A stretch of DNA of 64,000 nt from NCBI GenBank assembly GCA_965197745.1, contig CBDANS010000007.1:160001-224000 (forward strand), written 5' to 3'. Made by a program: the position numbers and the translations under genes. Below the pieces are notes generated by a model that saw nothing but the letters and a program-made list of their open reading frames with translations, made no database searches and was not told where the DNA came from. The DNA is from Opitutales bacterium. GTDB lineage: Bacteria > Verrucomicrobiota > Verrucomicrobiia > Opitutales > PNEW01. Shown piece after piece: positions 1-3,169 of the stretch. The number at the start of each line of letters is the position of its first letter. The stretch's first letter is position 1.

Positions 1-113
1 TTCAGTTACATCCTCGTATAGCCTTACTCTTTCTGAAAATTCTGGCAGTGGAGTGACCCCCAAAAATGGTATCATTAACAGAGAGAGGTTATGGGGATAA
101 CCCGATAACCTCA

Positions 114-380
114 ATGAAAAGAAAAGGATATACAACAGAACAGATCATAGCAATACTGCGGCAGCCCGATACGGGCAAAACCGTGCAGGAAGTCTGCCGC
201 GGCAACAACCTAAGTGAACAGACCTTCTATCGCTGGGGCAAAAAGTATGGCAACTTGGAGCTGGCTGATGCGAAGCGATTTAAAGAGCTGGAAAAGGAGA
301 ATACGGAGCTGAAGAAGATGCTCGCTGATCAAATGCTCAAGCTTCGGGTGTTGGAGGAAACGCTCTCAAAAAAATGGTGA
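114..380 (+). CDS. IS3 transposase OrfA (HTH_Tnp_1)
   Basis: MKRKGYTTEQIIAILRQ...EVCR...SEQTFYRW.KKYG...KELEKENTELKKMLAD. A7 slippery run at 368-374 and GTGA overlap with orfB. Confidence 0.9.
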   Translation: MKRKGYTTEQIIAILRQPDTGKTVQEVCRGNNLSEQTFYRWGKKYGNLELADAKRFKELEKENTELKKMLADQMLKLRVLEETLSKKW

Positions 381-809
381 GCCCAAAGCAGAAGAAGCGA
401 GCAGTAAAAGATGCGGCTGAGAAGGGGCTGTGCTCGTTTTAGAGGGCTTGTGCTTATCTCAGCCTCAGTTGGTCAACGTACAGCTACCGACCCAAGCAGG
501 CCAGTAAGAAGGCTCAGCGGTTGGCCGAGCGGATTGTAACCCTGTCCTGGGAACATCCCCGCTACGGTTATCGGCGCATCCGTGCCTTGCTGGTGAAGGA
601 AGGTTGGGCGGCGAGCAGGAAATTTGTACAGGCAGTGCGACGTTCTTCGGGCTTACAGGTAAAGCCACCAAAAAAGCGTAGACACCGTCAAGGAGTCTCT
701 ACAGGGTCGCCTACTAAAGCAACCGGTCGCAATCACCTTTGGTCCTGGGACTTTGTCCATGATCGCACAGACCATGGCGGTCCATTAAAGATGATGACTC
801 TGATCGATG

Positions 810-852
810 TACCGAGGAGCTGAAAGCGACGACACTCAAGCGAAGCGAAGAC
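810..852 (+). repeat. Structured micro-insert 1 (43 nt) in orfB codon ID[E]YTREC
   Basis: GAT G|TACCGAGGAGCTGAAAGCGACGACACTCAAGCGAAGCGAAGAC|A TAT ACG CGT GAA TGT; carries in-frame TGA. Confidence 0.85.
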
Positions 853-980
853 ATATACGCGTGAATGTCTGGATATCCGGGTCGCTCGTGAACTCACCTC
901 ATCGGATGTCCTCTCTGTGCTTAGCGAGGCCATTGAAAAGGAGGGAGCTCCCAGCTATATCCGCAGTGATAATGGCAGTG

Positions 981-1012
981 TTCCGAGGAGCAAAGCGACG
1001 ACATGCGAAGCC
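981..1012 (+). repeat. Structured micro-insert 2 (32 nt) in orfB codon SDNGS[E]F
   Basis: AGT G|TTCCGAGGAGCAAAGCGACGACATGCGAAGCC|A TTT ATC; shifts frame. Confidence 0.85.
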
Positions 1013-1092
1013 ATTTATCGCTCATCAAGTACAGCGGTGGTTGCGTGAAAAAAACATCAAGGCGATATATATCGATCCGGGTAGTCCCTGGC

Positions 1093-1135
1093 TACCGAGC
1101 GAAGCGACACCTCAACGAGCCAAAGCGAGAATAAC
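1093..1135 (+). repeat. Structured micro-insert 3 (43 nt) in orfB codon PGSPW[Q]NG
   Basis: TGG C|TACCGAGCGAAGCGACACCTCAACGAGCCAAAGCGAGAATAAC|A AAC GGT; in frame, visible as LPSEATPQRAKARIT in ORF 807..1202. Confidence 0.85.
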
Positions 1136-1176
1136 AAACGGTTTCATCGAGTCGTTTCACAACCGCTTACGCGATG

Positions 1177-1212
1177 TACCGAGGAACGTAGTGACGACAT
1201 AGCGAAGCGCTC
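1177..1212 (+). repeat. Structured micro-insert 4 (36 nt) in orfB codon RLRD[E]CLN
   Basis: GAT G|TACCGAGGAACGTAGTGACGACATAGCGAAGCGCTC|A TGT TTG AAC; carries in-frame TAG and shifts frame. Confidence 0.85.
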
Positions 1213-1454
1213 ATGTTTGAACCCTGAAGTGTTGCTCAGCGTGGCTGAAGCGCAAGTTCTAATCGAACAATGGCGTCAGACCTATAACAATGAACATCCC
1301 CACCGTCGATCAGGCTTTCAAAGCCCACAAGAGTTTGTCACATTCCTTTCAGATCCTGGCCGCGCCAAGATCTCTCATATACATCAATCCTAAAACCATT
1401 TACACCCGGTAACTCTCTCACTTAATAATTGGTACGAAAAACGGGGTCCGATCA

Positions 1455-1646
1455 CCAGTGCCAGGCCGCTCCCGCAAAATAATTACGGTCATCTTGAACG
1501 AACCTGAATTTATTATATCTTCCCTTTTCCCCCCGGAAACTTTTAAGCTCCTCTGTCTTCTCTTGAAACGCTTCATTTCGTCGAAGTAATTCCCATACCT
1601 TCGCCGGTATGCCGTCCTCACAGGGATTGTAGACTGGTAAGTTCAT
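1455..1646 (-). pseudogene. N-terminus of a gene interrupted by the IS3 element; WELLRRN motif resembles DUF6499-type island regulators
   Basis: ORF runs exactly into the IS right end (the IS supplies the stop). An open frame (LPEFSERVRLYEDVTE) continues at 48..1. Confidence 0.5.
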
Positions 1647-1933
1647 GCGTACTATTGCTTCTCTATCGGTATTAAATTTAACAACCGTTTGGACTCATCC
1701 TCCACTCCTTGAAGTGGACACTGCCCAGCGCAATATCCGTCGGCTTTTGACTTTGGTGGGCATCGTCTACTGCTAGTTCAATTAATTCCTGTGCGAACCA
1801 TTAGTTCTACCAAACATCGCTTGCCTCGTGGTGTCAATATGTCCTGTTAATTGGCAGTGTCTCAATTTGAAAATTTTGGATCCCATTGACAAATTTTATT
1901 AATCATGCGGTATTACTTCACCCATATTTACAA

Positions 1934-2905
1934 ATGATGAAACGTAGTTTCTTCCCCTTTCTGTTTTCGTTAGTCTCAATGTGCGTTGTGTCGCCAACGG
2001 TTGTCACTGCTGAAGTTGTGTCTTGCGCGGATCACTCTATCGCGGCCAGCGCGATACGCACAACGGGGGACGTAAAAGCGTTCGTGCAATGCGCCTACGA
2101 GTATGTCCAGGAAGAGGGCTTTGATGAGGCCCGCAGAGCCTTTAACGAGGATGAGCGCTGGAGAAGCGGTCCGATCTATGTCTTCGTCTCCGAATCGACC
2201 CCGACGAGCGATCAGGCGCGACGCTTCGTCTTCCCGCCCGACCGGCTCAACGAAGGAACATCGCTAGGGTTGCTGATTGATGCCTACGGCAACGACTACT
2301 ACAAGGAACAGCATCGCATCACGAGCAGCGTAGGAGATGGCTGGATCTACTACTCCTTTACAAACTTTGAGACGGGCAGGGATGAACCGAAGGTTACCTA
2401 CATCAAGAGCATCGACTGGGACGGGACCCCCGCTGCGATCGGCGCGGGGATCTACCGCCGCGACATCCCGGGTGCATGCAACAGTGAAGAGGTCAACGCC
2501 ATGTTGCTTGATAGCGATCCTTCCAACGAGAGACTCATGGAGTTTGTCCGTTGCGCCGCAATGGAGCTAGAAATGAAAGGCTATTTTGCCATCAACACTT
2601 TGACAACGGAACCGCGATGGAAACACGGATCAATCTACTTGTTTGCCATCGATACTTATGGCTATACGCTGTTCAGTGGCGATTCATACAGCCAGCCGGA
2701 TATAATGTCCGAGTTGGCGGGAACGGTCACAGACCATGACCTTGTGAGCGTTGCGGACGCTTTCGGTGAAACCTTTCTCTATTATTCGAGTCGCAATCCG
2801 TCCACCGAAATGATGCAGCAAAAGGTGACTTTCGTTAAGAGAATAGTGTCCTTTGGTCTGCCGATTCTAATTGGCGCCGGCTATTATCTGGAGGAGGGAC
2901 AGTAG
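1934..2905 (+). CDS. Secreted tandem single-Cache (sCache_2-like) domain protein
   Basis: Signal-peptide-like N-terminus. Two repeats of 'FV.CA...G...A...F/L...RW..G.IY.F...G...Y...N..T....K.T..K.I...G.P..IGAG.Y'. Confidence 0.75.
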   Translation: MMKRSFFPFLFSLVSMCVVSPTVVTAEVVSCADHSIAASAIRTTGDVKAFVQCAYEYVQEEGFDEARRAFNEDERWRSGPIYVFVSESTPTSDQARRFVFPPDRLNEGTSLGLLIDAYGNDYYKEQHRITSSVGDGWIYYSFTNFETGRDEPKVTYIKSIDWDGTPAAIGAGIYRRDIPGACNSEEVNAMLLDSDPSNERLMEFVRCAAMELEMKGYFAINTLTTEPRWKHGSIYLFAIDTYGYTLFSGDSYSQPDIMSELAGTVTDHDLVSVADAFGETFLYYSSRNPSTEMMQQKVTFVKRIVSFGLPILIGAGYYLEEGQ

Positions 2906-3169
2906 GTCGGGAATAGCTCACTTCTAAGAAGAAGTAAATGCGGCTACTCTGTTTAAAGGGGATGCCCCAAAGGGGGAGACTTATAAACTCTACATGGAAA
3001 TATTTGAGTGCCCTTTTTAACCCTGGTTTCACAGGCAGGTTCCCTGAGAATCGTATCCGAGTTGGTACAGATTAAAGGCGTGAATAGATTATAAATAAAT
3101 ATCACCACCCAGGCATTTTTGATGTTATTCAGTCTGTGATGGCTTCTGAACATCTCAAAAGTCTTCCAC

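Follow-up and report, generated by a model that had tools for sequence, protein, structure and literature searches.

In a 64,000-nucleotide stretch of DNA from an Opitutales bacterium (contig CBDANS010000007.1 of assembly GCA_965197745.1, positions 160,001 to 224,000; the whole stretch is called the window below), one copy of an insertion sequence (IS) of the IS3 family, here named IS-A, occupies positions 49-1454. Its transposase gene, orfB, is broken by four short inserts. These inserts are probably lineage-specific, ultra-small (about 20-45 nt) hairpins of some Opitutales, which resemble repetitive extragenic palindromic (REP) sequences or small dispersed repeats (SDRs) and which have landed in the IS3 transposase gene and broken it. 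Among the explanations offered in the original prediction, which was made from the letters alone, a parasitic micro-element family comes closest, and more than 100 further units were found here and in related Opitutales. However, the homing to conserved IS sites that was proposed along with it is not general, and most units are intergenic.

Four inserts in the transposase gene of IS-A

The inserts lie at 810-852, 981-1012, 1093-1135 and 1177-1212 and are 43, 32, 43 and 36 nt long, as had been described. They share the start TWCCGAG (TACCGAG, TTCCGAG, TACCGAG and TACCGAG, in order), and C is the last letter of all four. The genome (4.45 Mb in 7 contigs, 92% complete; G000 in the locus names below) has 34 full-length copies of IS-A, which were aligned with their flanks. 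The alignment reveals the empty forms of sites 1 to 4: GAT GAA TAT, AGT GAG TTC, TGG CAA AAC and GAT GAG TGT. Since the sister copies show the empty codons GAA, GAG, CAA and GAG, the interrupted residues are E, E, Q and E, and the interrupted motifs are ID-E-YTREC, SDNGS-E-F, PW-Q-NG and RD-E-CLN, in agreement with the original prediction. The inserts had been placed inside codons, and a codon is indeed hit each time, but none is a plain insertion: one purine of the codon is missing at every filled site. At all four sites the junction changes from S-A-R-W to S-[TWCCGAG...C]-A-W, with one purine lost and zero target duplication. The net length gains are +42, +31, +42 and +35 at sites 1 to 4. 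A target duplication of TA or TT was considered and rejected, because it fits sites 1 and 2 only. The features of the window copy, all on the + strand, are as follows.

49..1454, +: window copy of IS-A, with the ends 5'-TGGAGTGACCCC ... GGGGTCCGATCA-3'; boundaries from the 34 aligned copies.
114..380, +: orfA, intact; HTH_Tnp_1 with E 5.1e-19; TGA stop at 378-380.
368..374, +: A7 run, likely -1 frameshift site between orfA and orfB, from sequence comparison and from what is known of the IS3 family.
374..808, +: orfB fragment 1 (HTH_21 and the start of the rve core), with an in-frame TAG at 440-442.
810..852, +: insert 1, 43 nt, in the Glu codon of LID-E-YTREC; in-frame TGA; filled in 28/34 IS-A copies.
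854..979, +: orfB fragment 2 (rve core to SDNGS); rve with E 1.2e-5.
981..1012, +: insert 2, 32 nt, in the Glu codon of SDNGS-E-F; frame shifted; filled in 32/34 IS-A copies and 35/40 copies of IS-B, a second IS3 element.
1014..1091, +: orfB fragment 3 (FIAHQ...GSPW).
1093..1135, +: insert 3, 43 nt, in the Gln codon of PW-Q-NG; in frame, no stop; filled in 10/34 IS-A copies.
1137..1175, +: orfB fragment 4 (NGFIESFHNRLRD, with the DDE glutamate).
1177..1212, +: insert 4, 36 nt, in the Glu codon of RD-E-CLN; frame shifted; filled in 8/34 IS-A copies.
1214..1393, +: orfB fragment 5 (rve_3); rve_3 with E 7e-8.

With insert states written for sites 1 to 4 (1, filled; 0, empty), the 34 copies comprise 23 of state 1100, five of state 1111 (including the window copy), three of state 0110, two of state 0011 and one of state 0101. 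Inserts 1, 2 and 4 bring a stop or a frameshift into orfB, while insert 3 would only add residues to the core. In one copy from a near-identical 1100 group (G000:C7:836566, locus L016), precisely the CAA codon of site 3 is missing, perhaps as the footprint of an insertion and its loss, or through a chance deletion of 3 nt.

IS-A belongs to the IS3 family. Its termini are inverted repeats of the TG...CA type, target duplications of 4 bp (TTGC, GACT, TTCC and CAGC) flank four copies of state 1100, and Pfam matches were found to HTH_Tnp_1, HTH_21, rve and rve_3. An intact sister orfB matches rve with E 1.8e-22 and rve_3 with E 4.3e-26, and the five pieces of the window orfB together have HTH_21, rve and rve_3 matches. 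At the position of the A7 run, one sister subgroup of IS-A has the classic A AAA AAG, which would be the slippery motif. The TAG at 440-442 is 21 codons past the frameshift site and is common to several IS-A subgroups (dS 0.25-0.44); other copies read CGA, CGG or TGG at this position. A segment of 22 nt (…cgttcgggctacgccctcactg…) near 1362, at the 3' end of orfB, is missing from the window copy and present in nearly all other IS-A copies.

The inserts had been said to be absent from the rest of the window, and the unit pattern in fact matches only the four within the 64 kb. The shorter TWCCGAGSR was found six times against 3.77 expected; 20 of 100 shuffles reach six, and the two matches outside the inserts are at chance level. 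An assembly artefact had been named as a refuting outcome. The same inserts are present in 102 pattern matches from this genome and further assemblies, and in contigs of four public sequencing runs from three studies.

The hairpin family and its target

The four inserts belong to a family whose hairpin units covary and are found across the genome. With a loose pattern for the unit (TWCCGAG, 4-24 nt, GACAY), 263 matches were obtained in the genome, compared with 15 for a reversed-pattern control. These matches split into 127 units of an IS type and 136 general units (TACCGAG-hairpin-CGACATCTTCCA). In the general units, 68 of 81 hairpin cells pair, compared with 57.8 +/- 2.1 after shuffling, and 0 of 1000 shuffles reach 68. 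Their stems include GGC with GCC, GAC with GTC, AGC with GCT, and TCCCGC with GCGGGA as against TCCTGT with GCAGGA. A compensatory pair also distinguishes inserts 2 and 4 (GAGC..GCGAC vs GAAC..GTGAC). The predicted RNA folds of the four inserts with their flanks are not better than those of shuffled sequences (z from -0.11 to +1.54). Thus, the hairpin is read from the covariation in the family and from the compensatory pair, not from folding energy.

Where are the units? Only 43 of the 136 general units lie in long open frames, which make up 83% of the genome. Inspected by eye, these 43 comprise chance matches, units within IS-B and units that lie at the 5' edge of a frame, where it is untranslated; a host gene convincingly split by a general unit was not found among them. 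I read the lack of units in host genes as purifying selection. A scatter of the motif over the genome with no bias for mobile-element genes had been named as a refuting outcome, and this is partly what was found: the units of the broad motif are dispersed genome-wide and lie mostly between genes, so that the motif is not specific to mobile elements. Only one sub-type, TWCCGAGGARC..GYGACGACAY, is almost restricted to transposase genes, with 124 of its 127 units there. The flanks of general units are often short tandem runs of AATCG-like heptamers (CAATCGG, CAATCCG, GACAATC), for example at C6:562592 and C7:1180506.

The distribution of the family is patchy. Of 41 related genomes, five have 86, 130, 143, 37 and 138 matches to the general-unit pattern, and the remaining 36 have 0-3 each. 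A scan of 401 Opitutales genomes found the IS-type module in 32 of them, and reversed-pattern controls gave 0 matches. In the more distant genomes it lies mostly within other palindromic repeats, and in one of them it occupies a fifth site of an IS3 transposase. A looser scan of a genome collection, with a pattern lacking the TW prefix, returned at least 112 loci, mostly in unrelated high-GC genomes and with several Opitutales records. No published description of the unit family was found in full-text literature searches.

Why were conserved codons hit? The sequence YG/AR/T (slashes set off the bases at the junction) is common to sites 1, 2 and 4, to a site in an IS630-type transposase and to sites in T-loops, and site 3 and a site in a repeat resembling a miniature inverted-repeat transposable element (MITE) have GGC/AA instead. 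YGART was scanned for in IS-A with its empty sites restored in silico. The coding strand has eight matches and the opposite strand one, and six of these positions lie within orfB. All but one of the six coincide with core Glu codons (IDEY, TREC, GSEF, FIES and RDEC) in codon phase 1, and sites 1, 2 and 4 account for three of the six. Since the YG/AR/T sites in orfB are few and nearly all of them are core Glu codons, the inserts look as if they were aimed at conserved residues; a five-base preference is sufficient to place them in phase 1 of core Glu codons. It is therefore probable that a short DNA target preference explains the placement rather than a system aimed at the protein. The original prediction had argued that random decay cannot hit conserved codons. 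The four-site pattern itself stands, but the inference is weakened by the YG/AR/T target.

Independent support for YG/AR/T comes from pseudo-tRNA halves and from the IS630-type transposase. In the former, units lie in the T-loop (GGTTCG/AA/TCC) of 3' halves of tRNAs, of Asn here and of Asn, Arg and Ser in three other genomes. In the latter (G095, locus L175; DDE_3-like), a unit lies in the Glu codon of LNPD-E-Y. Two further filled/empty pairs obey the S-A-R-W junction rule, and, as in the T-loops, no codon is involved. One is at the frameshift site of IS-B, where a unit on the opposite strand has entered at C/AG/T, and the other is in the MITE-like palindromic repeat, at GGC/AA/TCC.

Several of these loci have features of their own. 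At G000:C6:355392-355700 (also G001 L032, G035 L039 and G176 L178), the 3' half of a real tRNA gene is repeated once or twice behind the gene, and in each repeat the unit lies in the T-loop between GGTTCG and A(A)TCC. These repeats look like the disrupted attachment-site repeats of an integrative element. The transposase at G095 L175 seems to have a second short extra segment between SPD and LNP. The IS-B frameshift-site unit is 25 nt long and sits exactly on the A8 frameshift site on the opposite strand, with two bases replaced (G000:C1:9388, C4:58905, C6:553716, C6:1392761 and C7:1466990). The variable part of the unit can pair with the flank on its left (GCTTAC with GTAAGC); by eye, no other guide-like complementarity between insert tails and flanks was found. 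The MITE-like repeat (…ATTGCGAGGAGCAACGCGACGCGGC AA TCCAGGSGAATG…, with the right arm inverted) is present at many G000 loci, such as C6:717474, C7:1497281 and C6:1103779, in forms with and without the unit, and its left module resembles the 5' half of the IS-type inserts.

The closest relatives by description are very small bacterial repeats. Nostoc and Anabaena reportedly have SDR1-8 (Elhai et al. 2008), hairpin-bearing mobile repeats of about 20-30 nt that are nested in other repeats and whose mode of movement is said to be unknown; by this description, the units here are alike in size, hairpin and nesting and differ in phylum and sequence. According to Di Nocera, De Gregorio and Rocco (2013; PMC3733652), CGTC-tagged REPs are stem-loops of 20-40 bp with a high copy number, mostly extragenic and often nested or paired; no dedicated transposase is reported there, and occasional copies lie inside genes. 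As in CGTC/TGTC-tagged REPs of that account, a tetranucleotide (TGTC or CGTC on the reverse strand) adjoins the stem: the hairpin is directly followed by ...CGACA or ...GACGACA, that is, TGTCG or TGTCGTC on the other strand. Copy number (263 vs 15 for the control) and location (43/136 general units in long open frames vs 83% of the genome) are also those of REPs. On the other hand, compared with REPs as described there, the units here have filled/empty pairs, a base-replacing junction, the target S/AR/W, a TWCCGAG 5' box, a CGAG/CGAC clamp, a transposase-bound sub-type and one site per variant. Rickettsia palindromic elements, which the same source (PMC3733652) describes as CGTC-tagged palindromic repeats inside protein-coding genes, are longer and lie in frame in working host genes, whereas the units here are shorter, three of the four are disruptive, and within genes they were seen only in those of mobile elements.

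Spread of the filled copies

The 23 IS-A copies of state 1100 fall into two sets of near-identical copies, one with 13 members and one with 10. An intact orfA is present in 23 copies, and masking the inserts leaves orfB fully open in the group of 10. The near-identity within the groups and the 4-bp target duplications indicate that filled copies have transposed. Within the groups, synonymous and non-synonymous differences number 23:9 and 64:57, counts that are confounded by recombination and by one frameshifted copy. Between IS-A subgroups, dS is 0.09-0.48 and dN/dS 0.12-0.35.

Which transposase moved them? IS-B has 40 copies, of which 35 carry insert 2 and four have a fully open orfB. Its orfB probe shares 45-50% protein identity with IS-A-type copies. 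A third element, IS-C, is intact and present in a single copy. In a related genome (G002), about 45 IS-A-like copies have a single TGA in a stretch that is about 14 codons longer, beside 2-3 uninterrupted copies; this extra stretch is taken to be insert 1 alone. With working transposase genes in the cell and broken copies that have multiplied, trans-mobilisation of the IS-A copies would be the economical reading. From the similar ends of the two elements, one might guess that IS-B mobilises IS-A.

Recombination clearly occurs at the inserts. Filled IS-B copies are 100% identical to intact IS-B before the insert and 96% or 88% after it. A chimera at G000:C7:1673334 (locus L003) is IS-A to the left of insert 2 and IS-B-like to the right, and the shared insert 2 appears to be the recombination joint.

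The proposed course of events is the following. A unit consists of TWCCGAG, a covarying hairpin clamped by CGAG...CGAC, GACAY and a short tail ending in CA. It enters after an S (G or C) that has an A behind it, in most cases at YG/AR/T, without duplication and usually with the loss of one purine. It is retained between genes and in dispensable DNA such as other repeats and transposase genes. An orfB hit in this way is broken, and the filled copies, which have multiplied, may have spread as non-autonomous elements with transposase from elsewhere in the cell, while recombination between copies reshuffles the filled sites. As to how the units themselves move, a single-strand (HUH-like) or a template-switch route would be no more than a guess.

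Weighing the explanations

That the inserts are errors of assembly or sequencing, or the chance decay of a dead gene, is hardly credible: the same inserts recur at identical positions in many copies, across several independent assemblies and in the contigs of four runs, and the controls gave 0 in 401 genomes. The original prediction also raised intervening sequences that are removed by RNA splicing, ribosome bypass or a reversible DNA excision restoring the codon, and that would thus gate the transposase. Some observations would fit this idea. The orfB genes of subgroups that both carry inserts 1 and 2 show purifying selection between them (dN/dS 0.12-0.35). In the 10-copy group, orfB is fully open with the inserts masked and orfA and A AAA AAG are intact. 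Filled copies have multiplied in at least three genomes, the closest copy pair (dS 0.086) differs in state at two sites, and the copy without exactly the CAA codon at site 3 would also fit. Four public runs were compared with the window copy, two of them RNA libraries (X17 and X18) and two of unrecorded library type (X1 and X4). All four are available as contigs only, from which depth, strand and the absence of a form (for example, of the site-1 or site-2 joint in X1) cannot be read; among the matches listed, 20 entries from 10 studies match the stretch or part of it. Insert-free joints were found at all four sites in the run contigs, the site-2 joint being listed in the two RNA-library runs only. 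An RNA-library contig of X18 (record 22) in which sites 2, 3 and 4 are empty shares 97-98% identity with the window copy, which also speaks for removal. However, each insert-free joint has A or AG between the flanks. Since these letters belong to the original codon and are missing from the filled DNA, simple excision or splicing cannot yield such forms, and the insert-free contigs come from empty DNA copies. As the form in record 22 is missing among the 34 copies, a less-interrupted IS-A exists in related populations.

Other observations also argue against removal. In RNA-library contigs, site 1 (record 12) and sites 2 and 3 (record 13) are still filled, and a loose end in X4, a run of unrecorded library type, also has site 2 empty. 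Net gains of 42, 31, 42 and 35 do not keep the frame, and removal from T to C would leave the message one base short. The selection signal in orfB can predate the inserts or come in by recombination. Homing introns, inteins and bypass elements (T4 gene 60 and the byps of yeast mitochondria, of 27-55 nt) also occupy conserved sites of conserved genes; the site choice and the size of byps are alike, but no sign of removal at the level of RNA, protein or translation was seen here. A translational bypass element was rejected because none of the four sites has matching take-off and landing codons (GAT/ACA, AGT/CCA, TGG/ACA and GAT/TCA); bypass would also drop the Glu or Gln residue at the four sites. 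A self-splicing or known structured RNA was rejected as well: an Rfam scan of positions 1-3000 at a permissive threshold gave nothing better than E = 1.2, with two chance-level snoRNA matches, and the folds are not above those of shuffles. Removable inserts are thus very unlikely.

The reading of the inserts as small hairpin repeats that landed in the transposase gene has to face a number of observations that weigh against it. No IS-A copy with all four sites empty was found among the 34 in the 92% complete genome, so that no intact IS-A gene of this assembly accounts for the movement of the 23 filled copies. The YGART motif was derived partly from the sites it accounts for, so it is a good account and no proof. 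The original prediction had suggested looking for an enzyme that co-occurs with the inserts, and none could be linked to them. The Y1 transposase family PF01797 is present in all five unit-rich genomes and also in 17 of the 36 others, that is, in 22 of 41 relatives of which 17 lack units. The sole Y1 gene here (IS200-like/RAYT-like; G000:C6:162800-163750) is split by a frameshift into frames of 199 and 175 aa, and no units lie beside it. In relatives, Y1 frames are uninterrupted with about 330 aa, with up to 46 matches in one genome. A RAYT/Y1 link was rejected on these grounds: the gene is frameshifted, no units adjoin it, and its presence across relatives is non-specific. Unit orientation has no clear bias with respect to replication strand by GC skew (47:40 and 19:29), though IS200/IS605-like insertion would be expected to bring one, and no convincing case of a gene framed by two units, as in a REPtron-like layout, was found in the genome. 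A MITE was also rejected, since the filled/empty pairs have neither terminal inverted repeats nor a target duplication matching a parent IS.

It is known that the Y1 transposase mechanism of the HUH type underlies REPIN/RAYT and IS200/IS605-derived elements. In the filled/empty pairs here there is no duplication, and nothing beyond S or YG is constant in the left flank. Compared with these elements as described in the literature (PMC3116915), the units are alike in being hairpin-based, free of target duplication, small and non-autonomous, but they differ in having no fixed left target of 4-5 nt, no clear strand bias and no unit-flanked Y1 gene.

Further contrary points concern the fidelity of the inserts. 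Each variant occurs at its own site only: insert 2 in 71/71 cases, insert 1 in 31/31, insert 4 in 13/13 and insert 3 in 9/9, or 124/124 in total. Inserts 1 and 4 are never swapped, though both follow GATG. Such fidelity goes beyond a plain target preference. Between subgroups with a dS of 0.37, inserts 1 and 2 have 0/43 and 0/32 differences, and the flanks begin to differ at a distance of 4-17 nt from the inserts. Insert 2 has the same sequence in IS-A as in IS-B, yet the four letters that precede the shared G are CAGT in one and TTCC in the other. Ordinary gene conversion would bring flanking bases too and does not fit an identity limited to the insert, and old age with neutral drift is excluded as its cause. 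What is left is an insert-only, site-specific copying or a strong constraint on the insert, and the identity of insert 2 across IS families hints at the former. This insert-only identity across distant IS families is the one feature that is truly left without an explanation.

Could a dedicated process write the inserts? It would copy the exact cassette, without flanks, into homologous empty sites of other, even distant, transposase genes. It might be a property of the element family or a host function against transposons, and in effect a drive that inactivates IS3 transposases at conserved motifs. The original prediction had proposed a targeted anti-transposon mechanism, which stays a candidate because of the 124/124 fidelity and the identical insert 2 in two distant IS families, but no enzyme or guide was found for it. 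Other facts favour such a process as well. Insert 2 is identical or 1 nt apart in IS-A and IS-B, which share 45-50% protein identity and whose Ser codons before the insert differ (AGT vs TCC or TCG). The inserts lie within the longest identical runs between diverged copies, site 2 is occupied in 32/34 IS-A and 35/40 IS-B copies, and an IS630-type transposase of another genome was hit in the Glu codon of LNPD-E-Y. Nevertheless, suitable targets are empty (sites 3 and 4 in 23 IS-A copies, site 1 in 38 of 40 IS-B copies), the wider family lies mainly in intergenic repeats and pseudo-tRNA halves and not in transposases, and insert 1 has diverged (2-7 differences) in more diverged IS contexts, which fits inheritance with the IS. 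I therefore regard a homing or writing process as unlikely. By the same token, it is a doubtful possibility that hairpin cassettes of 32-45 nt home into IS3-type transposases and silence them, as a drive or as a weapon of the host, with recombination of differently hit copies able to rebuild an active gene.

How REP-like and other tiny repeats move is a long-standing question, and the main obstacle has been that clean before/after sites are rare. Since the small hairpins of this Opitutales bacterium have their targets in multicopy transposase genes, the genome has dozens of filled/empty pairs, from which the junction rule, the YG/AR/T target and the hairpin clamped by CGAG/CGAC can be read. 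The genome also reveals that broken, non-autonomous IS copies can outnumber intact ones. It suggests that small repeats may serve as portable homology that recombines different IS families. If true, the transfer of inserts alone between distant IS families would be a new kind of site-specific DNA copying.

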